In this document: piece after piece, positions 47,124 through 64,000 of the stretch | Layout of the letters: each line of letters opens with the position of its first letter | How positions within the stretch are numbered: position 1 is the first letter of the stretch | IMG/VR virus record: IMGVR_UViG_3300020213_000001 | Length of the DNA: 64,000 bases | Reading direction: 5' to 3' (one strand) | DNA from: a virus | Notes under the pieces: model-generated | What the model was told of the DNA's origin: nothing | Seen by the model: only the letters and a program-made list of their open reading frames with translations | The model's database searches: none | Position numbers and translations under genes: made by a program

Positions 47124-47702
47124 CTACAAGCTAGTCACTTGCTTAAGAAACTGAATGTTAAGAGCTTGCTGGTTATTCCCGGCAGCGCTGACATCTTCAC
47201 CGGCATTTCTGGCAGCATAGGCGGCACTATAGGCGGCATTGTTGGCAGTATGTATGGCATAGTTGGCGGCACCAGAGGCAGCTCGGGCGGAATTATAGGT
47301 GGCATAGTGGACAGCGGTGGCGGCATAGGCGACGCAATCGGTGGCATAGCTGACTTGAATAATATCTAAGTGTCTTTTAATCTCCGACTTTTCAATATCG
47401 TTCAAGTTATTAAAATCCTTAACTGTTTTAAGAAAATTGATGCAATCTCTAGGGCGTTTATCTTTTGGGTATTTTTTCTCAAAAATATGTAATACGCTTT
47501 CAGCACAAAGAACAGACCAAATCACAGCTTGGTTTTGGGTTAAAATCTTTTCTGCAACCCAAGTTTTATCATCATAGTCAAGATTAGTTAAGTCTAGGAA
47601 ATCATTAAAGCTTCCATCAAAATTAGCGTTATTCTCTAGGAAATGTTCATACCTATCAAAGCAAGGATTTAGGCTTTTCAGTACTTCTTTATTGATCTGC
47701 AT
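47124..47702 (-). CDS. Imm5-like paralog, copy A
   Basis: MQINKE..PC.DRY N-terminus; W..LCAESV.HIFE.KYP.DKRPR; Ala/Tyr core; LNIQFLKQV. Confidence 0.75.
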   Translation of the reverse strand: MQINKEVLKSLNPCFDRYEHFLENNANFDGSFNDFLDLTNLDYDDKTWVAEKILTQNQAVIWSVLCAESVLHIFEKKYPKDKRPRDCINFLKTVKDFNNLNDIEKSEIKRHLDIIQVSYATDCVAYAATAVHYATYNSARAASGAANYAIHTANNAAYSAAYAARNAGEDVSAAGNNQQALNIQFLKQVTSL

Positions 47703-47714
47703 ATGGAGTCCTTT

Positions 47715-48323
47715 TCAAACACTAGTTACTTGTTTAAGAAACTGAATGTTAAGCTCTTTCTGTTTTTGCTTGGCAGAACGGGCAGCATTAGAGGCATAGA
47801 AAGCATCTTCATCGGCAAAGGTGGCTTCGGTGGCATGGAAGGCAGCAAGGGTGGCATAGGAAACAGCTTCAGAAGTACGAACAGCACAGGCGGCCCGGAT
47901 GGCATAATAGGCAGCATCGGAGGTAGCACGGACTGCATGGGTATTATAGTAGTGAATAGGGGTATTGCTGGCAGTACGGTAGATCGCTTCATGCCTTTCA
48001 ATCTCCAATACTTGAGCATCGGTCAAACTATTGAAATCCTTAACTGTTTTAAGGTATCGAATACAATTACTAATGTATCTATCATCTGGATACTTTGCTT
48101 CAAAAATATGCACAACACTTTCGACACAAAGTATTGACCAGTTAATAGCTTGGTGTTTAGTTAATACATTTTTGGTAACCCAAATTTTATCGGCGTACTC
48201 AAGATTAGGTAAGTCCAGGAATTCGATAAAACTACCGTTAAACTCAGCGTGATGCTCTAGATAATTCTCATACCTGCTAGCGCAAGGCTCTAGGCTTCTC
48301 AAGAATTCTTTGTTAATTTGCAT
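47715..48323 (-). CDS. Imm5-like paralog, copy B
   Basis: Same architecture; own promoter (-35 at 48378-48383). Confidence 0.75.
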   Translation of the reverse strand: MQINKEFLRSLEPCASRYENYLEHHAEFNGSFIEFLDLPNLEYADKIWVTKNVLTKHQAINWSILCVESVVHIFEAKYPDDRYISNCIRYLKTVKDFNSLTDAQVLEIERHEAIYRTASNTPIHYYNTHAVRATSDAAYYAIRAACAVRTSEAVSYATLAAFHATEATFADEDAFYASNAARSAKQKQKELNIQFLKQVTSV

Positions 48324-48383
48324 AAAGTGTCTCCTGTGTTGTTGCTCTTAACCCATTGTTGCATATAGGGCCAGGCTTGTCAA

Positions 48384-49013
48384 CTATAAACTAATCACTT
48401 GCTTAAGAAATTGAATGTTGAGTTCTTCTTGATTTTGTTGAGCGGCATTTTTAGTAGAATCGCTGACAGAATAAGTGGTAGGGTTGGCGGCATAGTGGGC
48501 GGCACTAGTGGCATAGTTGGCACAGCGGACGGCATTGTATGCGGCATCGGCGATCAAGCGGACGGCAGCACAGACAGCATAGAGGGCATTGGCGGCATAG
48601 ACGGCATAGAGGGCATAATAGTTGGCACGGACAGCGGAGCGGGAAGCTCGGGCGGTACAACAGTCTCCAATAATATCCCTGTGCTTTTCAATCTCCTCTC
48701 TTTCAGTATCAGTCAAGTTATCAAAATCATTAATAGTCTTGAGGAAATTGATGCAATTGTTAAGAATCTTGTCGTCTGTATTCTTAGCTTCAAACATATG
48801 AACTACACTTTCAGCACAAAGAGTTGCCCAGCTAACGGCTTGATTTTGGGTTAACACCTTTTCTGCAACCCAAACTTTATCAGAGTAAGCAAGATTAGGT
48901 AAGTCTAGGAATTCACTAAGGCTTCCATCAAAGCTAGCATTGTGTTTTAGAAAATGCTTATATCTATCAGCACAAGGATTTAGGCTTTTCAGTACTTCTT
49001 TATTAATCTGCAT
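48384..49013 (-). CDS. Imm5-like paralog, copy C
   Basis: Same architecture; TTGACT-N17-TATTCT promoter. Confidence 0.75.
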   Translation of the reverse strand: MQINKEVLKSLNPCADRYKHFLKHNASFDGSLSEFLDLPNLAYSDKVWVAEKVLTQNQAVSWATLCAESVVHMFEAKNTDDKILNNCINFLKTINDFDNLTDTEREEIEKHRDIIGDCCTARASRSAVRANYYALYAVYAANALYAVCAAVRLIADAAYNAVRCANYATSAAHYAANPTTYSVSDSTKNAAQQNQEELNIQFLKQVISL

Positions 49014-49080
49014 AAAGTGTCTCCTGTGGTTTATCAGAGAATAGCATATAAAACTAAACTAGTCAACTATAGTATTAACA

Positions 49081-49803
49081 CTAAAATATTTTCATCCTAT
49101 ACATATCTAAGCTAACGACTTCAAGTGATTTTAAAACATCAGACCTAACCTCCTTAATGGTCATGCTAGTATTTTTTTCATCATTCGGAACATTCCAGCT
49201 ATAGGTGTTAGTAAATTTAAGGAAAATCCAGTTAACGTTAAACCCTAACAATTTGAGCTTATTGTAATCCTTGACTAGACGTAGATAGCTAGGCGCACCT
49301 GGATGTAACACCTTGTTAACATCTGGATCGGTTGAACAATATACTAGATTAATGTTTACACCCCTATCTAGCTGCTCAATATATTCATCGTGAGCTATTA
49401 GATCGGACCTAGTATAGATAATTTTAGCATGTTTGAGTATATTCAACGTGATGGCATACTTTTGGTCCATCCAAATAAACGCATCTGGTCCGCCACCATC
49501 TGTAATTATATCCGCACCTAGTATAGCCTGTGGTAAACATTTACCATTAGGAACCGGGAAGCGGAGCTTGTTGCTGGTAAAATATGTATACGGTTGATAA
49601 ACCGTACCATGTGTACACCCGACATAGGGGAACGGATAGTTACTAGTTTGACAAGCCTTAATATACGCTACATCACCCTTACTATCAGAATAGCGTTGAA
49701 TTAGATCGTTGATCTCATCGCGCCGATCAGGAGAAGGGTTTACCTCACACGCGACACTACTAGATACCACGGTACGCGATTTAAAACAAATAACGTTACT
49801 CAC
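49081..49803 (-). CDS. Degenerate radical-SAM-like protein (SPL/Rv2578c-like)
   Basis: PYVGCTHGTVY (degenerate CxxxCxxC); KYAIT, TRSDLI, LHPGAPS..RL. Confidence 0.55.
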   Translation of the reverse strand: MSNVICFKSRTVVSSSVACEVNPSPDRRDEINDLIQRYSDSKGDVAYIKACQTSNYPFPYVGCTHGTVYQPYTYFTSNKLRFPVPNGKCLPQAILGADIITDGGGPDAFIWMDQKYAITLNILKHAKIIYTRSDLIAHDEYIEQLDRGVNINLVYCSTDPDVNKVLHPGAPSYLRLVKDYNKLKLLGFNVNWIFLKFTNTYSWNVPNDEKNTSMTIKEVRSDVLKSLEVVSLDMYRMKIF

Positions 49804-49812
49804 GGTAACCCC

Positions 49813-50007
49813 CTACTCTACATTGCTTAAACGACTAAGTAACAATTCATTGGTAACCCTTACAAGGAATTCTTGTAAATCTCGGATGCTTTCAGGGTTT
49901 AGTGCTAGGCTTTTAGTAGTGTTGCCGTTACCGTCAGTAATTTTAATAGTATATTCAAACACGGAAGGTTTGAGATTGCTAAGTTGTGACTTGTAATAAC
50001 TATCCAT
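49813..50007 (-). CDS. Small hypothetical protein, paralog of 59000-59188
   Basis: YYKSQLSNLKPS...TIKITDGNGNTTK shared. Confidence 0.7.
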   Translation of the reverse strand: MDSYYKSQLSNLKPSVFEYTIKITDGNGNTTKSLALNPESIRDLQEFLVRVTNELLLSRLSNVE

Positions 50008-50016
50008 TGTACCGTC

Positions 50017-50094
50017 CTATAGTAAGTAGTAAATAACTGAAACTGTTACGCCAACCGGGACAAGACTGTAAGCTAGTGTTTGTAATGCATTCAT
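50017..50094 (-). CDS. 25-aa hydrophobic peptide, probably leaderless
   Basis: MNALQTLAYSLVPVGVTVSVIYYLL; ATG 7 nt after the -10 of TTGACA-N17-TATACT. Confidence 0.45.
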   Translation of the reverse strand: MNALQTLAYSLVPVGVTVSVIYYLL

Positions 50095-50133
50095 ATATCA
50101 CAGTATATAGCATAAAACTAAGATTGTCAAGCC

Positions 50134-50736
50134 TTACAAACTACATGCCATTCTCAGAAACTGAATGTTGAGTTCTTCTTGACTTTCTTGAGCAGCAATT
50201 TTATTAGAATCACTAGCAGCATTGGCGGCATAGGAGGCATAGGTGGCGGCATAGGAGGCATAGGTGGCAGCATTGGTGGCAGCTCGGATGGCATTGTATG
50301 CGGCAACACAGAGGGCATAGCGGGCAGCATGGGCCGCATAGCGGGCAGCAAGGGCGGCATAGTAGGCAGCATTGGTGGCATAGCAGTCTCCAATAATATC
50401 CCTATGCTTTTCGATCTCCTCTGTTTCAGTATCAGTCAAGTTATTAAAATCCTTAACAGTCTTAAGAAAATCGATGCAATCACTAAAACGTTTATCTTCT
50501 GGATACTTTTCTTCAAAAATATGAGCTACGCTTTCGGCACAAAGAACTGCCCAGCTAACGGCTTGATTTTTGGTTAACACCTTTTCTGCAACCCAAATTT
50601 TATCGTCGTAGTTGACATTAGGTAATTCCATGAAATCACTAAGGCTTCCGCTAAAATTAGCGTGATGCTCTAGGAAATGCTCATACCTATCAAAGCAAGG
50701 ATTTAGGCTTTTCAGTACTTCTTTATTAATCTGCAT
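50134..50736 (-). CDS. Imm5-like paralog, copy D
   Basis: Same architecture; FLRMACSL C-terminal type. Confidence 0.75.
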   Translation of the reverse strand: MQINKEVLKSLNPCFDRYEHFLEHHANFSGSLSDFMELPNVNYDDKIWVAEKVLTKNQAVSWAVLCAESVAHIFEEKYPEDKRFSDCIDFLKTVKDFNNLTDTETEEIEKHRDIIGDCYATNAAYYAALAARYAAHAARYALCVAAYNAIRAATNAATYASYAATYASYAANAASDSNKIAAQESQEELNIQFLRMACSL

Positions 50737-50792
50737 AAAGTGTCTCCTGTAGTTTACCAGAGAATAGCATATAAAACTAAACTAGTCAAGCT

Positions 50793-51449
50793 TTACAAAC
50801 TAGTCACTTGTTTAAGAAACTGAAGATTAAGGGCTTCTTGTTTTTGTTGAGCGGCATCACCAGGGGAAGCACAGATTGAAAGGGCAGCATGGGCGGCAGA
50901 ACGGGCGGCATATTCGGCAGCACAGCGGGCAGAAATGGTGGCAGAATGGTATGCACAGCGGGCAGAAATGGTGGCAGAATGGTATGCATAGGTGGCATAG
51001 GTGGTGGCGGCATTGGCAGAGCCGGCAGCATAGGCGGCAGCATAGGCGGCAGCATAGGCGGCAGCATAGGCGGCAGCATCGGTGGTGGCGTAGTGGACGA
51101 CATAGACGGCACTTTCATGCCTTTTAATCTCTAATACTTGGGCATTTGTCAAGTTATTAAAATCATTAACTGTTTTAAGGTAGTTGATGCAATCACTAAA
51201 ACGTTTATCTTTTGGATATTCTTTTTCAAATATATACATAACACTGTCAGCACAAAAAATTGCCCACTTAACAGCTTGATTTTGGGTTAATACCCTTTTT
51301 GCAACCCAGGTTTTATCTTCATAGCTAATATTTGGTAAGTCCATGAATTCGCTAAGACTACCGTTAAACTCACCGTGATGCCTTAGATAATTCTCATATC
51401 TATCAACACAAGGCTCTAGGATTTTCAATACGTCTTTATTGATTTGCAT
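50793..51449 (-). CDS. Imm5-like paralog, copy E
   Basis: Same architecture; (AAAY)x4 and (AYHSATISARC)x2. Confidence 0.75.
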   Translation of the reverse strand: MQINKDVLKILEPCVDRYENYLRHHGEFNGSLSEFMDLPNISYEDKTWVAKRVLTQNQAVKWAIFCADSVMYIFEKEYPKDKRFSDCINYLKTVNDFNNLTNAQVLEIKRHESAVYVVHYATTDAAAYAAAYAAAYAAAYAAGSANAATTYATYAYHSATISARCAYHSATISARCAAEYAARSAAHAALSICASPGDAAQQKQEALNLQFLKQVTSL

Positions 51450-51561
51450 AAAGCTTCCCTGGTTGTTGATCTTAACCCATTATTACATATAATGCTAAGC
51501 TTGTCAAGGTAAATCCCAATAGCTCAATTTTTCAGTCCTTACCTCGAATGATTACAGTATC

Positions 51562-51867
51562 TTACTCGGATTCGCATTCTTGCTCGAAAAAATCCCACGC
51601 TTTATCAATTTCAGATTCTTCATAGAACACGTCGTCAACTTCAACATATTCGGCGGTGTAATCATTAAACCCGCATCTATATGCAGTAGGATCGACATTT
51701 CTCAATATATCACTAGGATCATAGGCGCAACCGCCTACTTTATAAGGCTCGTGGCATTCATCAAGCATTGCATCGAATGCTTGTTCCATTTCCTTCTCAC
51801 TACGCCCGGTAACGTTTTCCTCCAAGAATTCCAAAAACGCCTTATTTTTTAAATCATAGCTGCTCAT
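51562..51867 (-). CDS. Acidic hypothetical early protein
   Basis: True ATG 51867 after the cassette promoter; DPTAYRCGFNDY. Confidence 0.65.
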   Translation of the reverse strand: MSSYDLKNKAFLEFLEENVTGRSEKEMEQAFDAMLDECHEPYKVGGCAYDPSDILRNVDPTAYRCGFNDYTAEYVEVDDVFYEESEIDKAWDFFEQECESE

Positions 51868-52583
51868 ATAAAATCCCTTGGTTAATGCTCTTACCTCATA
51901 ATACACTAGATAAGGAAGCTTGTCAAGCTAAAATTCTTTTGTAACAAATAGAAAACTTATCAGTCTCATTTAAAAGTGTATTACGTATCTTCTGGTGTAC
52001 CAGCTAACAAGTGGTGCCTGTTCGCCGGTGTTGGTTAAACGATGAGTACCACTATTATCGCATCTACTAGAACTATACTAGGAGACGTGCGGTTGTATGA
52101 AACGGTTACACGCTGTGAACAACTATTAAACAATTTGTAAAACTGGTAAATACACCAGAGTAAATGGTGTAACTGTTTGATATTGTAGAGTAATTTATTA
52201 GAGAGAAGAATGGTAAGGATTCACACTTGTAAAAACAAGCACTTACGTAACATTATAACATAGATGTGTTACTATGACGTTTTTTCTGTTAATAGTGTTT
52301 TTTTTGATTCACGGCATAGCTTCGCTCTACCTAGGAATTTCCTAAGTACACTATGCAGGAGATCTTGTCAAATATAATGCAATTAGTGCTACATTTAAGC
52401 CAAATACTTGAAATCATTCAATAACAATATACTCGAAGGCAATCTTACATTGCAAGAAGTAGCCCTATTGCCGCTAATTGCCTTATTTTCCATTACACCA
52501 TAACTATTGATTTCAGTATTATAGTTGACAAGCCTGGTCTTATATGTAATAATGGGTTAAGAGTAAAACGCAGGAGACACTTT

Positions 52584-53204
52584 ATGCAAATTAACAAAGA
52601 AGTACTGAAAAGACTTAAACCCTGTGCTGACAGGTATGAGCATTTCCTAGAGCATCACGCTGAGTTTAACGGTAGTCTTAGCGAATTCATGGACTTACCT
52701 AATCTTGAGTACGCCGATAAAATTTGGGTTGCAAGGAAGGTATTAACCAAGAATAAACGGGTTAAATGGGCTATTCTTTGCGCTGAAAGCGTTATGTATA
52801 TTTTTGAGGCAAAGTATCCAGATGATAAAAGCCTTAGTGATTGCATCAACTACCTTAAAACAGTTAATGATTTCGACGACTTGACATATGCTGAAAAGTC
52901 GAAGATTGAAAAGCACTTAGATATTATCGAAAAAGCTTTACCTACCTATGCCTCCTATGCCACCGGCGATGTCAACTATGCCGCCCATTCTGCCATCTAT
53001 GCTGCCTACTATGCTGCCACCAGTGCCACCACCAGTGATACCACCAGTGCTAGTAGTGCCGCCCAAGCTGCCCGCTTTGCCACCGAATTTGCCACCGAAT
53101 CTGCTTTCTATGCTGCCAAAAATGCCGGTGAAAATTTTACCGCTGCCAAGCATAACCAGCTAGAGCTTAACATTAAGTTTCTTAAGCAAGTGATTAGTCT
53201 GTAA
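52584..53204 (+). CDS. Imm5-like paralog, copy F
   Basis: Same architecture; promoter at 52525. Confidence 0.75.
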   Translation: MQINKEVLKRLKPCADRYEHFLEHHAEFNGSLSEFMDLPNLEYADKIWVARKVLTKNKRVKWAILCAESVMYIFEAKYPDDKSLSDCINYLKTVNDFDDLTYAEKSKIEKHLDIIEKALPTYASYATGDVNYAAHSAIYAAYYAATSATTSDTTSASSAAQAARFATEFATESAFYAAKNAGENFTAAKHNQLELNIKFLKQVISL

Positions 53205-53266
53205 GGGTTGACAAGCCTTCCTTATCTAGTGTACTATGGGTTAAGAGCAAAAACCAAGAGGTCTTT

Positions 53267-53860
53267 ATGCATATCAATAAAGAAGTACTGAAAAGCCTTA
53301 AGCCTTGCGCTGACAGATATGAGAATTATCTAAGGCATCACGCTAATTTTGATGGAAGCTTTGGTGAATTCCTAGACTTACCCAATATTAGCTATAGTGA
53401 TAAGGTTTGGATTGCTGAAAAGGTATTAACCAAGAATAAACGGGTTAAGTGGGCAATTCTTTGTGCTGAAAGCGTAGTACATGTTTTTGAAAAAGAATAC
53501 CCGGATGAAAGATGCATTAGTAATTGTATTCGATACCTTAAAACAGTTAAGGATTTTAATAGTTTGACTGATACTGAAAGAGAGGAGATCGAAAGGCACT
53601 TAGATATTATCCAAAAAGCTTTACCTGCCTATGCCGCCTTTGCAGCCCACTATGCCGTCCGTGCTGCCGCCTATGCCGCCCATTCTGCCATCTATGCCAC
53701 CAGTGCTGTTTCCTATGCCATCTATGCCACCAGTGCTGTTTCCTATGCCACCCTTGCTGCCTTCCATGCCACCGCCGATGCCGGTGAAGATGCTGATGGT
53801 GCCAGGAATAACCAGCGAGAGCTTAACATTCAGTTTTTGAGAATGGCATGTAGTTTGTAG
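53267..53860 (+). CDS. Imm5-like paralog, copy G
   Basis: Same architecture; 30-nt tandem duplication; FLRMACSL. Confidence 0.75.
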   Translation: MHINKEVLKSLKPCADRYENYLRHHANFDGSFGEFLDLPNISYSDKVWIAEKVLTKNKRVKWAILCAESVVHVFEKEYPDERCISNCIRYLKTVKDFNSLTDTEREEIERHLDIIQKALPAYAAFAAHYAVRAAAYAAHSAIYATSAVSYAIYATSAVSYATLAAFHATADAGEDADGARNNQRELNIQFLRMACSL

Positions 53861-53923
53861 TTGACAAGCCTGGCATTATATGTAATAATGAATAAGAGCA
53901 GTAAAGCTCTAAGAGGGAATTAG

Positions 53924-54319
53924 GTGAAAACAATACTTATCGCCATTATGGCGCTGTTTCTTATCGGTTGTTGTAAAAAATCTAATAAGTCTACACCTAT
54001 TATCACAAGTAAGCCTGTTGTGGAGTATAAACTTGCAGAGTCTTACTCTTTTTCAGCCCCAAATGGAGAGGCTTCCATTTTTGGTATGTTGCTAGGTTAT
54101 AACGAAATACATACCAGGATAGGTGTAATAGATTCAACTACTTGCTTGTTTAAAACTGTATTATACAAAAGCGTTCACCCTAATCCATACTTATTGCACG
54201 TATATGGTTCAAATCAGTTTGCATCAAATGTAGAGGTATGTTCGGAGTTGGAAGGTATCTACAGTTTTGAGTTAACCTCAGATTCGTCGGCGAATTTTAG
54301 AGTGATCGAAACATATTAG
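53924..54319 (+). CDS. Putative lipoprotein
   Basis: MKTILIAIMALFLIGC lipobox; cassette promoter at 53861. Confidence 0.65.
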   Translation: MKTILIAIMALFLIGCCKKSNKSTPIITSKPVVEYKLAESYSFSAPNGEASIFGMLLGYNEIHTRIGVIDSTTCLFKTVLYKSVHPNPYLLHVYGSNQFASNVEVCSELEGIYSFELTSDSSANFRVIETY

Positions 54320-54675
54320 GTCCTGGCGATAAGTATTTTGTTGTATTTTTTGAAGCATAGAGATAGAATCTTATAGGAGGTCGGCGTATTGGTACTAACA
54401 CGTCGGCTCTTATTGAATGATTTCAAGCAGTTGGCTTAAATGCAATGGCTTAGTACAATCTATGTACCAAGAAATATATAAAAACTCAAAAAGAGGTATA
54501 TTTTTTAATATAGATTTTACATTGCAGGATATATCTACAAGATTTCAACTACTTAGCTTACTCCCAGAAAATAAACAGTTCTTTTTTTAGCATACTTTTA
54601 GTATGCTTTTTGCGTTTGACATATAAATGTAATTAGTGCATAGTGGGTATAGGAATAAAACATAGGGAGACATAA

Positions 54676-55284
54676 ATGCTTAACGAAAATAAACAACTGG
54701 TTATTGATCGTTTAAATAGTGCCCTAAAAAGCCTATATCACAATGCGACTCCCAATTACCCTAATGCTCAAAATGATTATGAGGCACAGCTAATTCAAGA
54801 CTGGTTTCAAGATGCTGCTAGTGATGAGATTGATTACATTAACGATGGTGGAGCGAATGGTACTGGCACTAGTACCGCTGATTTCGTCGCATCTAAGTTT
54901 AAAACGGTTAAAGCTCAAAGCATGGCTAGAAAATTCTATATTAAGAAAGTGGCTAGCGAACGTGCAAGTTATGCTCCATGGGAGAATGTCAGAAAGTATG
55001 GTGAACTATTCCAGCATGGACGAGGTGGCCGCACCCTTGCACCCGAATCCCTAGTTAAGTCCCATGGTGCAAGCTTTACGGTTAAAACCGTAGATGATTT
55101 AGACCTTAACATGTCCTCCATGATCGAATTGATTTTGATTCTTGAATCCTTTAACTCGCATGTAAGCGGTTGGAATAGCTGTGTACCGGAGCAATGGGCC
55201 GATAATAAGGCGAATAGCGACCTTCAAGCCGAAATTGACGCGCACGACGGAATGAGCCCGCATAATACGGTTGTTTGGCGGTAA
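54676..55284 (+). CDS. Hypothetical early protein
   Basis: Promoter at 54616; GGGAGA RBS; GRGGR motif. Confidence 0.65.
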   Translation: MLNENKQLVIDRLNSALKSLYHNATPNYPNAQNDYEAQLIQDWFQDAASDEIDYINDGGANGTGTSTADFVASKFKTVKAQSMARKFYIKKVASERASYAPWENVRKYGELFQHGRGGRTLAPESLVKSHGASFTVKTVDDLDLNMSSMIELILILESFNSHVSGWNSCVPEQWADNKANSDLQAEIDAHDGMSPHNTVVWR

Positions 55285-55340
55285 TTGACAAGCCTTCCTG
55301 TATGGTGTATAATAGGGTAAGAACATAACAGGAGCTAAAA

Positions 55341-55799: not shown

Positions 55800-55841
55800 T
55801 TGACTATATGCTATTCTCTGATAAACCACAGGAGACACTTT

Positions 55842-56481
55842 ATGCAAATTAACAAAGAATTCCTGAAAAGACTTAAACCCTTGCGCTGACAGATATAAGA
55901 ATTTTCTAAAACACAATGCTGATTTTAGCGGAAGTCTTAGTGAATTCATGGACTTACCTACTGTTGCTTACTCTGATAAAATTTGGGTTGCAGAAAAGGT
56001 GTTAACCCAAAATCAAGCCGTTAGCTGGGCAACGCTATGCGCTGAAAGTGTTGTGTCTATTTTTGAAGCGAAATACCCAAAAGACAAGCGCCTTAGCAAT
56101 TGCATGGAGTTTCTTAAGTCTGTTAATGATTTCAATAGCTTGACAATTGATCAAGCATTAGAGGTTAGGAGGCATGAAAGTGCCGCCCGTGCTGCATGTG
56201 TTTCTAGTGGCACTAGTGGTGCCGATGGTGTAATTGCTGCCCGTGGTGCTAGTGGTGCCAGTGTTTTTGAATCTGCCCACGCTGTCCATGCAGCCGCCTA
56301 TGCTGCCACCGCCAGCCATGACGCCCATGCCACCAGTGCTGCCGTCCGTTCTGCCACCTGTGCCGCCAATGCTGCCTTCCATGCTGCTTTCTATGCTGAT
56401 CTTGATTCTAATAAAATTGCTGCTTTTAAAAATCAAGAAGCTCTTAACCTTCAGTTTTTGAGAATGGCATGTAGTCTGTAA
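55842..56481 (+). pseudogene. Imm5-like paralog, copy H (frameshifted)
   Basis: MQINKEFLKRLKP start at 55842; an extra base near 55880 gives an early TGA; the rest is the 55948-56481 ORF; promoter spacer shortened by 11 nt. Confidence 0.75.
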
Positions 56482-56539
56482 AGGTTGACAAGTTTAATCC
56501 TATATGCTATTCTCTGATAACACTAACCGGAGTTAAATC

Positions 56540-57598
56540 ATGGGTTCATTTTCGCAAATTTTCGCAAAAAATTATGTTAAAGTTATTCCTGTTGACGCTA
56601 AGTATAAAACAGTAAAGGGTAAAAAAATCCGTATTAAACATGTATTCGATAACTCACAGGTTGCTCACGTTTGGGCACAACAAACTCAAGAATTTGGACG
56701 CAATGGTAAAGAGACTATCTATTTCGACGGAGATAGCATTTATAGCTACGGTCCCCACTACCTCGCGGGGAAAATTCATGAGGTTGATGGGAAAAGGATA
56801 GCATTGATCAATAGTAAATCCTATAGCGTGTCCACAACTAGACACGTTTCATACGTTAGACGTTCTGTTAGGGGGCTTATTCCTCATTTCGAGGTGCCTA
56901 ATCCATCTGAATTGAAACACGTTGACAACGTTAATCATTTTTATAATGAGGTATTTAATGCTATTAGCCGTATCTTTAGCACCTCTAAAGTTACAAGTGC
57001 TTGCGGTGTTAAATATCCGATCAATAACATCAACACTATTGTAAAAAACGCTAACGCCTATTTTAACATCATTGGAGTTAAACCCATTATAGTTGACCAG
57101 GGCACTATGGAGGCAATCAAAGCGCATTTGAAAAAACGTTTTGCGCGTTATCTTGAGTTAAATAGTCCCGAAATTGTTGCTGACCGGGTAAGGGTTAAAC
57201 GCGAACTATTCGAGAAATATAATGCTATACGTATAGCGACGCTTAATGACCGTCTTGAGGAGTGGAAGTCCGGTAAATCTGTGTTATCTTACGTAGATGC
57301 GCGACTGTTAAATCTTAAATATGATCTAATCCGAGTACGTAACAACACTATTGAAACCAGCGGCGGCGCTAGTGTACCTCTAAACGATGCAATTGTAATG
57401 TATAAGGCGTTGGCGGCCGGTATGGCCAAGTCTGGCATGGGCGTTGGTAATTTTAAACTCACGTCTATCGACAAATGCGGTAGTGATACGATTGTTACAG
57501 TTGGTTGTCACAAGTTTTTACTAAGTGACATTGCGTCAACCATTGATGCCCATCTAAACAGAAATGAAGAAATTACCTGTAATGTTCTTCCTCTCTAA
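56540..57598 (+). CDS. Hypothetical early protein, 352 aa
   Basis: Promoter at 56485; VAHVWA, IYSYG.H and C-terminal VGCH motifs. Confidence 0.7.
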   Translation: MGSFSQIFAKNYVKVIPVDAKYKTVKGKKIRIKHVFDNSQVAHVWAQQTQEFGRNGKETIYFDGDSIYSYGPHYLAGKIHEVDGKRIALINSKSYSVSTTRHVSYVRRSVRGLIPHFEVPNPSELKHVDNVNHFYNEVFNAISRIFSTSKVTSACGVKYPINNINTIVKNANAYFNIIGVKPIIVDQGTMEAIKAHLKKRFARYLELNSPEIVADRVRVKRELFEKYNAIRIATLNDRLEEWKSGKSVLSYVDARLLNLKYDLIRVRNNTIETSGGASVPLNDAIVMYKALAAGMAKSGMGVGNFKLTSIDKCGSDTIVTVGCHKFLLSDIASTIDAHLNRNEEITCNVLPL

Positions 57599-57720
57599 AT
57601 GTTTTTTAAAATATTGACGACAAGCGTAGTAATATAAAATTGAGGCGCTAGAGGTTTATCTTGACAAGCCTGGCATTATATGTAATAATGGGTTAAGAGC
57701 AGCAACACAGGAGACTCCAT

Positions 57721-58320
57721 ATGCAGATCAATAAAGAAGTACTGAAAAGCCTAAATCCTTGTGCTGATAGGTATGAACATTTCCTAGAGCATTACGGAGA
57801 GTTTAACGGAAGTCTTAGTGATTTCCTAGACTTACCTAATCTTGACTACGATGATAAAGTTTGGGTTGCTATGAGGGTTTTAACCAAGAATCAAGCTATT
57901 AGCTGGGGAGTTCTTTGTGCTGAAAGCGTAGTGCATATTTTTGAAGCAAAACGCCCGGATGATAAACGCCTTATCAATTGCATCAATTTTCTTAAATCTA
58001 TTAATGATTTCAGTAGTTTGACAATTGATCAAGCATTAGAGATTAAGAGGCATGAATCTGACACCGATGATGTCATTGCTTCCAATTCTGCCGACGATGC
58101 TGCCTACTATGCCTCCTATGCTGCCTATGCAGCCGCCTATAGTGCCACCTTTGCTGCCAGTGTTTCCGAAGATGTCTATGCTGCCGCCTATGCCACCAAA
58201 CATGCCACCTATGCTGCCCGCTTTGCTTTCCATGCTGCCAGCAATTCTATTAATGATGACGCCGAGCAAAAACAAAAATACATCAACCTGCAATTTCTAA
58301 AACAAGTAGTTAGTTTATAG
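57721..58320 (+). CDS. Imm5-like paralog, copy I
   Basis: Same architecture; promoter at 57661. Confidence 0.75.
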   Translation: MQINKEVLKSLNPCADRYEHFLEHYGEFNGSLSDFLDLPNLDYDDKVWVAMRVLTKNQAISWGVLCAESVVHIFEAKRPDDKRLINCINFLKSINDFSSLTIDQALEIKRHESDTDDVIASNSADDAAYYASYAAYAAAYSATFAASVSEDVYAAAYATKHATYAARFAFHAASNSINDDAEQKQKYINLQFLKQVVSL

Positions 58321-58378
58321 TTGACAAGCCTGGCATTATATGTAATAATGGGTTAAGAGCAAACTACAGGAGTCATTT

Positions 58379-58939
58379 ATGCAGATTAATAAAGAATTCT
58401 TGAAAAGCCTAAAGCCTTGTGCTGACAGGTATAAGGTTTTTCTAAAACATCACGCTGATTTTGATGGAAGCCTTAGTGAATTCCTAGACTTACCTAATCT
58501 TGAATATGGCGATAAAGCTTGGGTTGCTGAAAGGGTATTAAACAAAAATCAAGCTATTAACTGGGCAATTCTATGCGCTGAAAGTGTTGTTCATATTTTT
58601 GAAGAACAGTGCCCAGGCAATAAACACCCTAGAGATTGCATCGATTTTCTTAAGACTGTTAATGATTTCAATAACTTAACTGAAACTGAAAAGTTGGAGA
58701 TCGAAAAGCACAAGGATATTATTGGAGACTACTATTCCACCAGTGCTGCCAACTATGCCACCAGTGCAGCCCACTATGCCCTCTATAGTGATGTATACAA
58801 TGCCGCCTTTGCAGCCCACTATGCCGTCTATGCTGCCACCCATTCTGCCAATGCTGCTAGTGATTCTATTGAAAGTGATGCTAAACAAAAACAAGAAGCC
58901 TTAAATCTTCAGTTTCTTAAACAAGTGATTAGCCTGTAA
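58379..58939 (+). CDS. Imm5-like paralog, copy J
   Basis: Same architecture; promoter at 58321. Confidence 0.75.
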   Translation: MQINKEFLKSLKPCADRYKVFLKHHADFDGSLSEFLDLPNLEYGDKAWVAERVLNKNQAINWAILCAESVVHIFEEQCPGNKHPRDCIDFLKTVNDFNNLTETEKLEIEKHKDIIGDYYSTSAANYATSAAHYALYSDVYNAAFAAHYAVYAATHSANAASDSIESDAKQKQEALNLQFLKQVISL

Positions 58940-58999
58940 GGCTTGACAAGCTCCCTTGGTTAGTGTATAATGGGTTAAGAGCATTAACCAAGGGATTTT

Positions 59000-59188
59000 A
59001 TGAGTAACTTCCAGTTGTATTACAAGTCACAACTTAGCAACCTCAAACCTTCCGAGTATGAATATACTATAAAAATTACTGACGGCAATGGCAACACTAC
59101 TAAACACCTATCGCTAAACGCTGAAAGCATCCAAGATTTGCAAGATTTTCTTGTAAGGGTTGCCGATGAATTGCTACTTAATCGCTAA
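59000..59188 (+). CDS. Small hypothetical protein, paralog of 49813-50007
   Basis: Near-identical protein; promoter at 58943. Confidence 0.7.
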   Translation: MSNFQLYYKSQLSNLKPSEYEYTIKITDGNGNTTKHLSLNAESIQDLQDFLVRVADELLLNR

Positions 59189-59212
59189 CTGATTGATTTT
59201 ACATACTTGACA
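59180..59212 (+). promoter_or_regulatory. IHF-consensus site fused to a -35 box (also 60754-60786, 61532-61564, 61848-61880)
   Basis: TAACTGATTGATT is the reverse complement of AATCAA-TCAG-TTA, matching WATCAANNNNTTR. Confidence 0.6.
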
Positions 59213-59264
59213 AGCCTCTCTGCATAGTGTATAATGGGTTAAGAGCAACAACCAAGGAAACTTT

Positions 59265-59864
59265 ATGCAAATTAACAAAGAATTCCTGAAAAGCCTAAAT
59301 CCTTGTGCTGATAGATATAAGCATTTTCTAAAACACCACGGTGAGTTTAACGGAAGCTTTAGCGAATTCATGGACTTACCTAATCTTGACTATGAAGATA
59401 AAATCTGGGTTGCTGTGATAGTTTTAACCAAGAATCAACTAGTTAAATGGTCAATTCTCTGCGCTGAAAGTGTCATACATATTTTTGAGGCTAATTATCC
59501 AGGCAATAAAAGCCTTAGCAATTGCATCAATTGCATCAATTACCTTAAATCTATTAATGATTTTAATAACTTGACCGATGCCCAATCATTAGAGATTAAG
59601 AGGCATTTAGGTATTATCAGAGACTACTGTACCGCCCATGCCAACTATGCTGCCCTTGCTGCCAATCACTCCACCATTGCTGCCACCCTTACTGCCATCC
59701 TTACTGCCACCCATGCTGCCACCTATGCCTCCGACGCTGCCCGCTCTGCCACCGTTTCTGCCCGCTGTGCCACCGAATCTGCCGACTATGCCGGTGAAGA
59801 TGCTGCCAAGCATAGCCAGCAAGCTCTTAACCTGCAATTTCTTAAGCAAGTGATTAGCCTGTAA
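59265..59864 (+). CDS. Imm5-like paralog, copy K
   Basis: Same architecture; NCINCIN 9-nt duplication. Confidence 0.75.
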   Translation: MQINKEFLKSLNPCADRYKHFLKHHGEFNGSFSEFMDLPNLDYEDKIWVAVIVLTKNQLVKWSILCAESVIHIFEANYPGNKSLSNCINCINYLKSINDFNNLTDAQSLEIKRHLGIIRDYCTAHANYAALAANHSTIAATLTAILTATHAATYASDAARSATVSARCATESADYAGEDAAKHSQQALNLQFLKQVISL

Positions 59865-59926
59865 AGCTTGACAAGTTCCCTTGGTTGATGTATAATGGGT
59901 TAAGACCAACAACCAAGGGATTTTGT

Positions 59927-60304
59927 ATGAGTAACTTTCAGTTGTATTACAATACTACTTGTTGCCCCGATTATTTCCGGGGCCATAGTGGTCTAGTTCT
60001 CGCCGTACCAGTTCACCACGGCATGATGTACACTGAACTGTTTGGGGAGCTAAAGCGCGAATTAATCGCATGTGATTATGGCCTTGAGGCATATGGCTTT
60101 ACGTGGGAGATGCTGCACAATATGGTAGATGCCTGGATTAAAGGCACTAAAGCTGATATCGAGGGCGAGACGGGCCTGGACGCTTGTACCACAAGCTTTT
60201 ATGAAAACTCTGAACACGACGAGCAAGACGACGATGCAGACGACTACGGCATGGACCAGGGCGATTCCTGTTTCGCATACTTTATCGTGACGGATGCAGA
60301 CTAG
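59927..60304 (+). CDS. Acidic hypothetical early protein
   Basis: True ATG 59927 after the cassette promoter; first 8 codons shared with the 59000 gene. Confidence 0.65.
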   Translation: MSNFQLYYNTTCCPDYFRGHSGLVLAVPVHHGMMYTELFGELKRELIACDYGLEAYGFTWEMLHNMVDAWIKGTKADIEGETGLDACTTSFYENSEHDEQDDDADDYGMDQGDSCFAYFIVTDAD

Positions 60305-60408
60305 GTCGATCGTTCGTTCTGGTTTAGTCGTTAAACAAGGAACTATAGCTTGACAAGCTCCCTTGGTTGGTGTATAATGGGTTAAGACCAACAACCAAGG
60401 GATTTTGT

Positions 60409-60564
60409 ATGGGCAAGTACCGCATAACAGGCTGGAATCAGGAAGATTGCTTAAAGGGCAAGACTTTTGAAACCTTCGAGGAAGCCTGTGCATTTGTTCG
60501 CGAACTGGAAAAAGACGAAACTAATTCTTGGCAGGAATATTCAGTAGAGAGGTGTAAATCATGA
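60409..60564 (+). CDS. Small hypothetical early protein
   Basis: ATG after the cassette promoter; KTFETFEEA. Confidence 0.6.
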   Translation: MGKYRITGWNQEDCLKGKTFETFEEACAFVRELEKDETNSWQEYSVERCKS

Positions 60565-60755
60565 GCAGGGAAAAGTTTTTATTCGATCACGCTTACAATG
60601 CGGTTTACGTTCACATTGATAAATTTTCGTATGATGCGGACGGTGAATATCAGTATTGTGGAAAATTGAACGGGCGTACTGAATCGGAATTCATTCGAGA
60701 TTACGAGACGGAGGAGCCGGGGCACTGGACGAGAGGCGCAACCTTTGAAGATTAA
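60561..60755 (+). CDS. Small hypothetical early protein
   Basis: GAGGTG RBS; ATGA overlap. Confidence 0.6.
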   Translation: MSREKFLFDHAYNAVYVHIDKFSYDADGEYQYCGKLNGRTESEFIRDYETEEPGHWTRGATFED

Positions 60756-60839
60756 TCGCTAACTGATTGATTTTACATGCTTGACAAGATCTCCTGCATA
60801 GTGTACTATGAGTTAAGAGCAAAAACAAAGAGGTAATAT

Positions 60840-61103
60840 ATGCTTGACGTAACTATTTGGGATAAGCTTGATTGTAAAATTAAATCGATGATCTTTAAAA
60901 ATGGGTTAACTCCGGAACTAATTAAATCCAGCGTTATCGGCGAATTAAATGAGATGGTAATTAAAATATCTGATAACTGTTACGAGGTACTATTTTACGG
61001 TAACGGTGAGGCCCATATAGATGTAGACGTTGACGGCGTGGACTACTCTTTTGTGTACGTTGTGGATAATTACGGAAATGGACCTAGACTAGTAAACTAT
61101 TAA
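60840..61103 (+). CDS. Hypothetical early protein
   Basis: Promoter at 60781; GAGGT RBS. Confidence 0.6.
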   Translation: MLDVTIWDKLDCKIKSMIFKNGLTPELIKSSVIGELNEMVIKISDNCYEVLFYGNGEAHIDVDVDGVDYSFVYVVDNYGNGPRLVNY

Positions 61104-61116
61104 AATGAGGTGGTAT

Positions 61117-61521
61117 ATGTTCGAAATTAAATCTCTAGTGGGACGAGTACACGACACTAGTTTCGGCGGTTACCCATTTAAAATTATCGCCACCATAACC
61201 ATCACAACTAAAGAATTCAATAAGTTACCTGTACTACGGCGTGAAGCTGCTAGTATGTTTGGAGGTGCCCGCGTCGTCCGTAAACTTGGCGAGCTTGTCG
61301 TGGCGGTCAATAACAAGGTTTATGCCGTTAACAATAACATTCCCGCATATCATCCGAGCATTGATTCCGAGGGCAGTAAGCGGGCGGTCAAGGGCATTAA
61401 AACCATGGTATTCGAGTATTTTATTAAAAACTTTGAAACTGCTGAAAGACTTGGTTTTAATGTTGATCTTAAGCGCCAACTTATTAAATCGAATGATATG
61501 ATTGACTTTCTCTCTAAGTAG
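61117..61521 (+). CDS. Hypothetical early protein
   Basis: ATG after GAGGTG. Confidence 0.6.
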   Translation: MFEIKSLVGRVHDTSFGGYPFKIIATITITTKEFNKLPVLRREAASMFGGARVVRKLGELVVAVNNKVYAVNNNIPAYHPSIDSEGSKRAVKGIKTMVFEYFIKNFETAERLGFNVDLKRQLIKSNDMIDFLSK

Positions 61522-61618
61522 TCAAGGTCCTAGTCGCTAACTGATTGATTTTACATGCTTAACAAGGAAGCTTGACTAGTGTACTATGGGTTAAGAGAAC
61601 AAAACCAAGGGATTTTAT

Positions 61619-61828
61619 ATGAGCAAGGACAAGAATAAAACTGTTATAGTCTGGGCCGTAATGCCGCACGATATGGAGTATAGTGTGCAATATTGCAATA
61701 CTAAAGAGCAAGCGGATGCCTGGGCCTTGACATATAAGTCAGGGGCGACGGTTGAGCAGGTGGAGCAATTGGAGCGGGTTGTCGAACGGAAGGGGCGAGA
61801 CACCGCCCGACGTGGTTATCGCCTTTAA
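61619..61828 (+). CDS. Small hypothetical early protein
   Basis: Cassette promoter at 61559. Confidence 0.6.
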   Translation: MSKDKNKTVIVWAVMPHDMEYSVQYCNTKEQADAWALTYKSGATVEQVEQLERVVERKGRDTARRGYRL

Positions 61829-61933
61829 TACCGTGTCAAAGCGTCCTAATCGTTAACTGATTGATTTTACATGCTTGACAAGCTCCCTTGGTTGATGTAT
61901 AATGGGTTAAGAGCAACAACCAAGGGATTTTAT

Positions 61934-62302
61934 ATGATAACTCGTGCACAAATTAAAGCTAAGATTCAGAACGACGTACGCTATACCCTCACCGCCGAAC
62001 GTGAAGATGCTATACCGTCTGAATATCTCGAATATACTGAAGATATCGAAAGTATCAATAGAGCGGTCGATCGTGGAGAACTTTGGGCATGGTGTATGGT
62101 TACGGTTACAGCATCTGTTTCACTCCTTGATTATAATTATGAGGGGCGCGAGTACCTAGGAGCTTGCTCATACGATGGTGAATCTGATTTTAAATCGGGC
62201 GGCTACTACAATGAGATGAAAGACCGGGCCTTGGATGAGCTGGCCGACGCTATACTTGAGACTATTACTCGTAGTGAAAAACTAGTTAACTACTTGAAGT
62301 AA
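61934..62302 (+). CDS. Hypothetical early protein
   Basis: True ATG 61934 after the cassette promoter; YLGACSY motif. Confidence 0.65.
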   Translation: MITRAQIKAKIQNDVRYTLTAEREDAIPSEYLEYTEDIESINRAVDRGELWAWCMVTVTASVSLLDYNYEGREYLGACSYDGESDFKSGGYYNEMKDRALDELADAILETITRSEKLVNYLK

Positions 62303-62345
62303 GACTAGTATTGCGCTCCGCCAATCGTTAACCAAGAGGTAATAT

Positions 62346-62639
62346 ATGAGCATTGATCAAGTTTGGGCGGCGTTGGATATCAGTAACGCTCAATATACAG
62401 GTGTACTTGAGTTTCAAGATGATAAAGATGAGTGGCACAATTTCGTGATTTTAAAGACGTGCACTAGATTGTTATTCGGTAGTGCCTGTAACGTTGGGTT
62501 TCTAGTGTCAGGTTATATGATGCTGGATGAGAATGCTCATCTAGGCGAAAATTTGCAGGAGTTGTTAGTAGACTTAGAGACGTTTTATAACGATGGCCCG
62601 AGCTATACAAGAAAGATCGTGTTCAATGAGCGCATGTAA
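62346..62639 (+). CDS. Hypothetical early protein
   Basis: GAGGT RBS; LLFGSACNVGFL.SGY. Confidence 0.6.
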   Translation: MSIDQVWAALDISNAQYTGVLEFQDDKDEWHNFVILKTCTRLLFGSACNVGFLVSGYMMLDENAHLGENLQELLVDLETFYNDGPSYTRKIVFNERM

Positions 62640-62726
62640 TCAAGACAAGCATGGCCAATAGTCTTAGCTTGACAAGATCTACTACATGCTGTACTATGGG
62701 TTAAGAGAACAAAACCAAGGAGCTTT

Positions 62727-62966
62727 ATGCTTGTATTGCTACAACTGATTAATATCATGGGCTTACAGTGCATGGAAAGTGAGATCAGTGAGATCATGGA
62801 AGAAGGCACCGTAAACCTTGACCATCTGCTAAATTTCTTTGATTTTATCTATAGTGAACATGATATTCAATTGAGCGAATCACAACGCTTGCTTTTCAAG
62901 AGGGTATTGATAACCGGTAAATATAAGTCTTGTCTTGGTATGTCCAAGCTGATTAATGTTGCTTGA
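62727..62966 (+). CDS. Hypothetical early protein
   Basis: Cassette promoter at 62669. Confidence 0.55.
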   Translation: MLVLLQLINIMGLQCMESEISEIMEEGTVNLDHLLNFFDFIYSEHDIQLSESQRLLFKRVLITGKYKSCLGMSKLINVA

Positions 62967-63021
62967 CAAGCCTTACTGCATAGTGTACTATGGGTATAAC
63001 ACCAAAGAAAAAGTGGGTATT

Positions 63022-63231
63022 ATGAAACGTGTACTGATAAGCTTTGCCGCATCTTTAAGCTATGTACCTGATAATACTGAGAGAACTGCTAAGAAAATGT
63101 CAGACTTTGACGTAGTATATCAGACGTGGCCTAGTCGCAAGGCCATGGCTAAGGAGATTCGCTTGCAGCAATCACGCCCGCATAGGTCTGATAATTGGAC
63201 ATCATGCATTCCGCTTAAGGATAATGAGTAG
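63022..63231 (+). CDS. Hypothetical early protein
   Basis: ATG after promoter at 62963. Confidence 0.55.
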   Translation: MKRVLISFAASLSYVPDNTERTAKKMSDFDVVYQTWPSRKAMAKEIRLQQSRPHRSDNWTSCIPLKDNE

Positions 63232-63286
63232 AATTAGCTTGACAAGCCTTCCGTCTAGTGTTACAATAAGGTAACAGGAGAAGGAC

Positions 63287-63760
63287 ATGGCTATATTTAA
63301 CCGCGTCACTGGTGAGAGAACATACATTGGTCTGATTATCTCTGAAAGAGGCACGTTCAGATTAGACACGTCTATGGACGAAGTAGTAGTTTGGAACGTC
63401 CAAAAGCAGCACGCTGAGACTATTTATCTCGGTCAAGGCGATGAGCATGTCGAGCGTGGCCAGGACCTTAGCCCTGAAAATTTAGAGCAGTATAACCAAT
63501 ACACAAGAAGGCAGCACGATTTACGCATGCTCGCCAATGCAGACCGCTTGGTCAGGACCTTGGCAATAGGCTCTACAATCAGAGTAGTACATGGTCGAAA
63601 CGTTCCAATAAACACTATTGGCGTGGTGAATAGAATACTTAAGGCGTCAAAGTTTATCCAGTTGGTATTTGTTGACAAAGAGGGAGTTGAGTTCAAGACG
63701 TATGCCCGAAATATTGAGATGCAAGTAAATGGAGAGTTTACAGACGAATTTAACGATTAA
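63287..63760 (+). CDS. Hypothetical early protein with SH3/KOW-like C-terminus
   Basis: IGSTIRVVHGRNVP..TIGVV; promoter at 63239. Confidence 0.6.
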   Translation: MAIFNRVTGERTYIGLIISERGTFRLDTSMDEVVVWNVQKQHAETIYLGQGDEHVERGQDLSPENLEQYNQYTRRQHDLRMLANADRLVRTLAIGSTIRVVHGRNVPINTIGVVNRILKASKFIQLVFVDKEGVEFKTYARNIEMQVNGEFTDEFND

Positions 63761-63799
63761 CCTTGCAATGCTATGGGATATAGTGTAAGATGTACTATA

Positions 63800-63985
63800 A
63801 CAGGGTATAAGCGTTTTGCTAAACACAATGGAGAGTTTAACGCTAGTCTTAGTGATTTCCTGTGCTTACCTAGTATTGCCTATGAATACAAGGTTTGGCC
63901 AGTAGAGAGGTTATTGACCAGGAGTTAGCCGTTAAGCGATTGCATCAACATTAAGTTTCTAAACAGGCGATTGATTAGTATTTAG
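63800..63985 (+). pseudogene. Eroded remnant of the Imm5-like paralog (copy L)
   Basis: YKRFAKHNGEFNASLSDFLCLPSIAYEYKVW..., stop, then LSDCIN fused to NIKFL; no start codon; variable core deleted. Confidence 0.7.
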
Positions 63986-64000
63986 CTTGACAAGCTTGGT

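Follow-up and report, generated by a model that had tools for sequence, protein, structure and literature searches.

Expanded array of Imm5-like genes with a repeat-encoded, strain-variable core in an uncultured tailed phage

Imm5 proteins, predicted immunity proteins of polymorphic toxin systems, were tied by Zhang et al. 2012 (PMC3482391) to toxins of the DYW deaminase and CdiA-C types. They are mostly alpha-helical, with a conserved aspartate (D) and arginine (R), and they are a common component of bacterial polyimmunity loci, which are tandem arrays of immunity genes that contain no toxin gene (PMC3482391). The immunity role of bacterial Imm5 is itself a prediction. SsdA-I, an immunity protein made up of helices only, blocks the active site of SsdA, a toxin of the Pseudomonas syringae type VI secretion system (T6SS) and a single-stranded DNA deaminase of the DYW family (PMC7901873). 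A protein of a different kind, gp54 of mycobacteriophage Tweety, has unique N- and C-terminal parts around high-G+C Ala-Ala-x-x repeats (PMC2884959, PMC9262239) in which variation affects the first two positions of each codon and the third is fixed (PMC2884959), and changes in the number of repeats lead to escape from the Phrann gp29/gp30 defence (PMC9262239). Here we describe an array of Imm5-like genes in an uncultured tailed phage, the IMG/VR virus record IMGVR_UViG_3300020213_000001. The source contig is 154,932 bp long, and we analysed a stretch of 64,000 nucleotides (nt), which we call the window.

From 47.1 kb to its end, the window is a region of small genes that is divergently transcribed. 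By open reading frame (ORF) listing and tblastn, we found that this region contains 10 intact Imm5-like paralogs of 186-218 amino acids (aa), one frameshifted copy and one remnant, which matches both the count and the arrangement (five on the left, seven on the right) given in an earlier note on this DNA. Five copies lie on the minus strand (47124-51449), and six lie on the plus strand (52584-59864) together with the remnant. About 6.6 kb of the 17 kb is paralog sequence. No Imm5-like copy turned up in positions 1-47000 when the window was searched with the copies by tblastn. The members of the array are:

47124-47702, minus strand: copy 1, 192 aa; PF21805 score 27.1 bits; lacks its own promoter, begins 12 nt behind copy 2
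47715-48323, minus strand: copy 2, 202 aa; promoter 48355-48383
48384-49013, minus strand: copy 3, 209 aa; promoter 49038-49066; strain differences at 48681-48749
50134-50736, minus strand: copy 4, 200 aa; promoter 50761-50789; the copy whose structure was modelled
50793-51449, minus strand: copy 5, 218 aa, longest core; promoter 51479-51507; 222 aa in strain contig L014
51930-52520, no strand: inter-arm gap, ~600 bp of non-coding DNA between the divergent arms
52584-53204, plus strand: copy 6, 206 aa; promoter 52525-52553; strain-variable conversion tract 52619-52742
53267-53860, plus strand: copy 7, 197 aa; promoter 53208-53237
55842-56481, plus strand: copy 8, with a frameshift near codon 10 caused by an extra A at 55871; promoter spacer collapsed
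57721-58320, plus strand: copy 9, 199 aa; promoter 57661-57689; strain-variable tract 57726-57879
58379-58939, plus strand: copy 10, 186 aa, shortest core; promoter 58321-58349
59265-59864, plus strand: copy 11, 199 aa; promoter 59207-59235, a 12/12 match to the consensus
63719-63985, plus strand: decayed remnant; tblastn match 63719-63937, E = 8e-12

Copy 8 opens normally (MQINKEFLKRLKP) and its frame then shifts. In the remnant, about 45 N-terminal codons are fused to the C-terminal tail; the middle is deleted and there are in-frame stops.

An alignment of the copies upholds the description in the earlier note of a constant N-terminus and a C-terminal Q..LN.QFL motif around a variable middle. 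Conservation covers the first ~113 residues, where 27 columns are invariant and the motifs PCADRY, DK.WVA, W..LCAESV..IFE and YP.DKR..CI.FLK occur, as well as the last ~13-22 residues (Q..LN.QFLKQV.SL). The 51-83 residues between these conserved ends, which we refer to as the core, vary both in length and in sequence in every copy. Column entropy averages 1.18 in the N-terminal part and 2.12 in the core. Within the N-terminal part, the first ~55 residues form a small head, which is followed by the helices carrying W..LCAESV..IFE..YP.D.R.

All 10 intact copies match the Pfam family PF21805 (Imm5_like). Five of them (25.2-27.1 bits) pass the curated cut-off of 25 bits, and the rest score 18.4-23.8 bits, so that the full range is 18.4-27.1 bits; most copies also match Imm5 (PF14423) weakly. 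Two close relatives from an IMG/VR contig, L001 and L002, score higher against PF21805, at 42.4 and 33.3 bits (44.1 and 36.8 on DNA). Among 1.84 billion representatives, a profile built for the family matched 2,106 clusters (50% identity) at E <= 0.001. When 90 diverse representatives recovered with this profile were compared with Pfam, 65 matched PF21805 at E <= 0.001 (best 7.7e-13), 24 matched PF14423 and seven matched DUF6931. Two long proteins, P0156 (3,069 aa) and P0158 (2,410 aa), have 9 and 12 units that match the family profile, so the Imm5-like unit also occurs in polyprotein form elsewhere in metagenomic sequence. The Atlas clusters closest to the family are Imm5_like and 88-100% viral (Uroviricota). 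Among PHROGs the window copies match phrog_38757, phrog_18326 and phrog_21347, all of unknown function, and searches of PADLOC and NCBIfam with four copies and four interspersed genes gave no match. The conserved D and R of Imm5 are present in the consensus (KYP.DKR / YP.D.R). As judged from these profiles and motifs, the assignment of the family to the Imm5/Imm5_like superfamily of predicted toxin-immunity proteins holds.

The likeness to Imm5_like and Imm5 extends over most of the protein, with the Pfam hidden Markov models (HMMs) aligning across residues ~55-180. Both are mostly alpha-helical, with the pattern W..CAE..V...FE...P.D.R followed by Ala-rich helices, and both occur in toxin-less tandem arrays, like the bacterial polyimmunity loci. 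The window family differs in being phage-encoded, in having an extra N-terminal head of ~55 residues and a conserved C-terminal Q..LN.QFL helix, in the putative early-type promoter of each gene, and in its strain-variable core of tandem repeats.

The predicted structure may point to the same group of proteins. An AlphaFold2 (AF2) model of copy 4, made from a 70-sequence alignment, has a mean predicted local distance difference test score (pLDDT) of 91 and a predicted template modelling score (pTM) of 0.88. It consists of 11 helices and is all-helical save for a small N-terminal beta pair, with the variable core forming the long helices 123-140, 147-174 and 179-198. The core is thus not disordered, because the model places it in confident long helices. 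Across the core columns, the frequency of alanine is sharply periodic at 3.6-3.67 residues (power ~1.0-1.3, versus <=0.1 at other periods), which means that the alanines line one face of a helix while the other faces vary. Both results agree with the constant frame and helical core proposed in the earlier note, which had named a disordered core as the outcome that would count against it.

The best structural match to the model among 48,161 PDB representatives is SsdA-I (7jtu_B), with 154 residues aligned at a root-mean-square deviation (rmsd) of 4.0 and a Z-score of 11.5, which is below the ~13 that helical bundles reach by chance. The next matches are two DUF416 proteins (Z = 9.6 and 9.3), after which scores fall to 7.4. 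Foldseek against the PDB gave nothing at E <= 0.001, with 7jtu_B second at E = 0.42. In a library of viral models the top match is an 'Imm-5-like domain-containing protein' of an uncultured phage (template modelling (TM) score 0.67). SsdA-I (7JTU chain B) resembles the copies in being ~190 aa long and exclusively alpha-helical, and the alignment covers 154 of 193 residues, across the whole protein. The toxin that it blocks is a member of the DYW deaminases, the group connected with Imm5 by Zhang et al. The two differ in that sequence identity is 9%, that sequence profiles do not reach SsdA-I, and that SsdA-I is a single gene beside its toxin whereas the window genes form an array. The sequence-family and fold evidence agree, since Imm5 and SsdA-I both point to DYW deaminase toxins. 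The resemblance to Imm5-like proteins that the earlier note recognized from the pattern of residues is therefore borne out by PF21805 (5 of 10 copies over the cut-off and 65 of 90 representatives), and the nearest fold is that of an immunity protein.

A 120-aa zinc deaminase is encoded at 46189-46551 (plus strand), 570 nt from the array, and is conserved in strain contig L014. It matches dCMP_cyt_deam_1 with 56.7 bits and a MafB19-like toxin deaminase family with 29.5 bits, above the cut-off. Its adjacency to the array is curious because Imm5 and SsdA-I are linked to deaminase toxins. A complex prediction for copy 4 with this deaminase scored 0.00 and returned no verdict, which is evidence neither way.

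The same family and fold evidence would also serve for a phage-borne polyimmunity locus, one that shields the infected cell (virocell) from T6SS, contact-dependent inhibition (CDI) and Rhs toxins of neighbouring cells and does not act on host defences. Bacterial polyimmunity loci are toxin-less tandem arrays in which Imm5 is common (PMC3482391), and the window array likewise has no toxin neighbour among the neighbours scanned. Being toxin-less and tandem, it resembles a homogeneous polyimmunity locus, but it sits in the putative early region of a phage. A lytic infection is short, so the benefit of shielding the cell is less obvious than that of blocking defence effectors. In addition, the family is overwhelmingly viral, as the Uroviricota content of the Atlas clusters indicates, and individual early-type promoters fit a role in take-over of the cell. 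We consider a shield against neighbours unlikely.

The cores are written as in-frame tandem repeats with periods of 9, 12, 21, 30, 33 and 42 nt. Exact repeats include 12 nt x 4.8 and 33 nt x 2.1 in copy 5, and 30 nt x 2.2 in copy 7. Alanine makes up 35% of core residues and tyrosine 11%, and the remainder are mostly Ser, Thr, Ile, Val, Asp, Asn, His and Arg. The G+C content of the core is 49-61%, versus 32-40% in the N-terminal part. NNY codons, with C or T in third position, make up 89-97% of the codons of the cores. At four-fold degenerate sites, C or T is present at 95% of core positions (63% C) versus 61% in other phage genes (Fisher p ~1e-57), and GCC accounts for 177 of the 257 Ala codons of the cores. 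This NNY/GCC bias, or constraint, acts at the nucleotide level. It keeps the antisense and +1 frames open, resulting in many shadow ORFs that are rich in Gly and Ile.

To see how the copies change over short times, it is useful to compare the window with contigs from near-identical strains, at 99% identity. Over 16.15 kb aligned to contig L014 there are 114 differences, and 94 of them fall inside Imm5-like copies, which constitute ~39% of the sequence compared; the other protein genes have 0-1 differences each. Rapid change at the level of strains, which the earlier note's term 'diversifying' implies, is thus seen directly. The differences are clustered in tracts. Copy 3 has an 81-nt tract in which the L014 version is 100% identical to the matching segment of copy 4, and the strain-variable tracts of copies 6 and 9 are ~125 nt and ~150 nt long. 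In copy 8, a 114-nt tract (55867-55980) has a window version that is 100% identical to a paralog in a downstream cluster. The frameshift in copy 8 is at the edge of this tract, and the gene is an intact 212-aa ORF in contigs L005, L006 and L014. The clustered tracts look like gene conversion between paralogs, although the copy 8 tract in the window could be a chimeric assembly.

The cores change in a different manner. Orthologous cores differ between strains by in-frame insertions or deletions (indels) of 46, 18, 9, 4, 3 and 1 codons, several of which are plain tandem duplications (for example, ATNAVSAAN x 2). Copy 11 in contig L005 is 217 aa long as the result of an 18-codon tandem duplication at 59703. 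All of the strain indels preserve the reading frame and the conserved C-terminal helix. A single core has point differences without indels, five of them nonsynonymous and none synonymous, a number too small to interpret. The core changes by gain and loss of repeats, and the constant part is shuffled by short conversion tracts; the repeat-encoded helical core is the fastest-changing part of the genome.

One gene outside the family is also strain-variable. The 143-aa gene at 61871-62302 (plus strand), whose function is unknown, has 48 substitutions relative to contig L004 where its neighbours have 1-3, and it is a second hotspot of strain variation.

The codon usage of the cores brings to mind a diversity-generating retroelement (DGR), which would yield NNY codons by mutating the adenines of AAY codons in its template. 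The proportion of NNY core codons (89-97%) fits this idea, and the residues found in the cores (A, Y, S, T, I, V, D, N, H, R, C, G, L and F) are those that AAY can reach. However, the strain differences consist of repeat-unit indels and paralog conversion tracts, not A-specific substitutions, and the cores differ in length. There is no reverse transcriptase among the larger window ORFs scanned, and tblastn with the copies found no template-like copy in the window. Diversification of the cores by a DGR is very improbable.

The array or its mosaicism could also have arisen in the assembly of the metagenome, because the source is a short-read metagenome contig and because the copy 8 frameshift lies at the edge of a paralog-identical tract, as a chimeric join might. 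Nevertheless, independent assemblies cover the region at 97-99.8% identity, the array recurs with its gene order and copies at 99-99.8% identity in assemblies from six or more samples (JGI, ENA and Logan), and the paralogs are too different in DNA sequence (65-82% identity) for collapse or duplication during assembly. Since independent assemblies reproduce the order and the copies, the array is not an assembly artefact, which the earlier note had listed as a concern; this explanation is scarcely credible.

Identity between paralogs of 65-82% in the conserved part, with ~0.83 synonymous substitutions per site (dS), shows that they are old. The ratio of nonsynonymous to synonymous substitution (dN/dS) there is ~0.25, so the constant frame is under purifying selection (dN/dS = 0.25 at dS = 0.83), and in the C-terminal tail the ratio is ~0.19. 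In the core it is ~0.9, on a poor alignment, and this value alone cannot tell diversifying selection from relaxed constraint.

The contrast in dN/dS between the core (~0.9) and the N-terminal part (0.25) raises the possibility that activity resides in the conserved head and scaffold, the Ala-rich core being a near-neutral, slippage-prone spacer and the copies being kept for dosage or for small differences in their conserved parts. The core is a low-complexity tandem repeat, and most conversion tracts fall in the conserved part. Residues 1-55 are similar to a YdhT_N-type head, which phages also join to differing tails of the MORN or bactofilin-like type; this resemblance is a lead from the Atlas only, and a Pfam search with the first 60 residues alone gave no match. 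On the other hand, the paralogs are old (dS ~0.8) yet intact, which is unlike amplification for dosage. The 10 intact copies and all the strain indels (1-46 codons) keep the frame and the C-terminal helix, and the alanine positions hold to a strict helical periodicity. The excess of C/T at four-fold sites (95% versus 61% elsewhere) indicates that the core DNA is not drifting freely. We regard a spacer role for the core as rather improbable.

Nine of the 11 copies have their own promoter of the form TTGACA-N17-TAtAAT, which is near the sigma-70 consensus, so the statement in the earlier note that almost all have a strong promoter of their own applies to most of them. The promoter-bearing copies share a leader (GGGTTAAGAGCAAC...) and an AGGAG Shine-Dalgarno site. 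The exceptions are copy 1, which follows closely behind copy 2, and copy 8, in which the spacer between the -35 and -10 boxes has shrunk to 6 nt, so that transcription would have to come from a promoter at 55285. A consensus scan of the region found 72 promoter-like sites, compared to 45.9 +/- 6.6 in shuffled sequences. Fifteen sites match the sigma-70 consensus at >=11 of 12 positions, six of them perfectly (12/12), and all 15 are rightly oriented upstream of genes; terminator-like sites were not enriched in the scan. The six perfect promoters argue for a host with canonical sigma-70 recognition.

Most of the remaining small genes here are driven by the promoter cassette of the copies as well: one promoter-leader cassette (TTGACAAGC..N..TATAATGGGTTAAGAGCAAC..AGGAG) serves at least 20 small genes in 49000-64000. 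This sharing argues for a large putative early regulon, and early transcription by the host sigma-70 RNA polymerase is a reasonable inference from the consensus promoters.

The reading that we favour, and to which we give about an even chance, is that the phage produces the copies soon after infection to bind and block toxin-type effectors stoichiometrically, and that what each copy binds depends on its variable helical faces. The region is a lineage-specific expansion of a phage accessory gene family, whose members the host sigma-70 RNA polymerase would transcribe at the start of infection from their individual consensus promoters. Each copy would act as a stoichiometric helical binder and block a different host or competitor protein. 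The targets would most probably be toxin-type effectors of abortive-infection and other defence systems or of polymorphic toxin systems, and the action would be like that of bacterial immunity proteins, such as SsdA-I plugging the active site of its deaminase toxin. A repertoire of this kind would widen the range of effectors that the phage can neutralise. The earlier note likened the array to a small antibody repertoire; the variation among copies and strains that this implies is present, and the rest of the comparison is an analogy only, because the variation is germ-line and not somatic.

Several results weigh against this reading. The Pfam scores of the individual copies are marginal, sequence profiles against PDB chains gave low-complexity chance matches only, and the Z-score of the match to SsdA-I is within what helical bundles reach by chance, as stated above. 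The core of the longest copy (copy 5) is poorly modelled (pLDDT 30-68), while its scaffold models well. Neutral drift of a slippage-prone spacer would also fit a core dN/dS of ~0.9, and chimeric short-read assembly of mixed strains could account for some of the mosaic tracts. We found no toxin domain among the array neighbours scanned, and with no toxin gene adjoining the array the context that defines a toxin-immunity pair is absent.

A more tentative extension of the binder reading, which we think possible but would not expect to hold in full, is that the phage maintains a germ-line library that renews itself and is made up of 20-30 or more immunity-fold binders, with a separate early promoter for each. 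The DNA would then be built for evolvability, with GC-rich repeats of NNY codons slipping in frame and with conserved flanks that let paralogs swap segments by gene conversion. If so, a phage population could quickly make new specificities against host toxins and defence effectors, and the array would be the phage counterpart, for counter-defence, of contingency loci and variant-surface-gene families.

Tweety gp54, along with Che8 gp57 and PMC gp51, is similar to the window copies in having Ala-rich in-frame repeats whose number varies between close relatives. It differs in being a single 374-aa gene with 48 near-identical repeats; the window cores are shorter and more degenerate. A comparison by hhalign gave no support for homology to Tweety gp54 (phrog_3416; probability 0.65%, E = 0.088). 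gp54 has no Pfam match, and the PHROG matches of the window copies do not include phrog_3416. Tweety gp54 is an experimental analogue of a tunable, repeat-based counter-defence protein, not a relative.

By literature searches on Imm5-like, PF21805 or Imm-5 with phage we found no paper on phage members, and we found no experimental study of Imm5-like proteins. What is already known is the Pfam family, with catalogued viral members, and the polyimmunity arrays of bacteria. What is new here is the scale of the expansion, the layout of one promoter per gene on two arms, the exact evidence from strain comparison that conversion and in-frame changes of the repeats take place, and a strong bias towards NNY and GCC codons. 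Imm5-like proteins are a very large phage family of which this genome is an extreme case, and its old paralogs are the main site of strain-level change. In-frame slippage together with gene conversion between paralogs shows how a phage can diversify such a panel without a dedicated mutator. If the copies inhibit toxins or defence effectors, the array offers a ready panel for finding new pairs of defence and counter-defence proteins, and the constant frame with its repeat-encoded variable helical surface would be a natural binder design.

The array also extends beyond the window. In near-identical strain contigs, the 157-aa gene found at 63287-63760 in the window and the remnant are followed by 4-9 more copies. 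After the remnant there are copies of 200, 192, 199 and 200 aa in contig L007, of 246, 199, 200 and 199 aa in L008, and of 246, 192, 199 and 200 aa in L005, and in each case the array runs off the end of the contig. In L004 there are nine copies, followed by genes for a DNA ligase and a SET-domain protein, so the copy content of this downstream cluster varies among strains. The figure of twelve members in the earlier note is therefore correct for the window, but its limits are not those of the array, and the copy number in the whole genome is probably about 20 or more. Distant relatives have two copies in a 35%-complete contig and one in a 93%-complete 79-kb genome, and Myxococcus phage Mx1 has no family member detectable by the profile or by PF21805. 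With 0, 1 or 2 copies in these distant relatives, the expansion is lineage-specific.

The two genes 3' of the extended array in L004 (8872-10436) encode an ATP-dependent DNA ligase and the SET-domain protein. The SET domain is a methyltransferase fold and is unusual in phages.

The rest of the window carries these genes of a tailed phage:

3161-4924: portal
5978-7852: large terminase
11680-13056: major head protein

A GroEL-like chaperonin is encoded at 7894-9636 (minus strand; phrog_5725, E = 3e-73). By its capsid protein, the closest cultured relative is Myxococcus phage Mx1 (46.9% amino acid identity). Searches of 50,697 phage records gave no match by megablast with 17 kb and 20 kb of the window, and nothing at E <= 0.001 by tblastn with copy 4.

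The inter-arm gap (51930-52520) has no ORF longer than 37 aa, no repeats and no Rfam match, and may serve in regulation or as an origin. Scanning the array and the gap for Rfam families, tRNAs and repeats gave nothing. Embedded in the array at 53924-54319 (plus strand) is a gene for a 131-aa protein with a lipoprotein-like signal (MKTILIAIMALFLIGCC), which might be a superinfection-exclusion or envelope factor. To the left of the array, the gene at 45349-45825 (plus strand) encodes a HAD domain of the RNA-repair type known as 'Swiss Army Knife' (PF18143, 95 bits).

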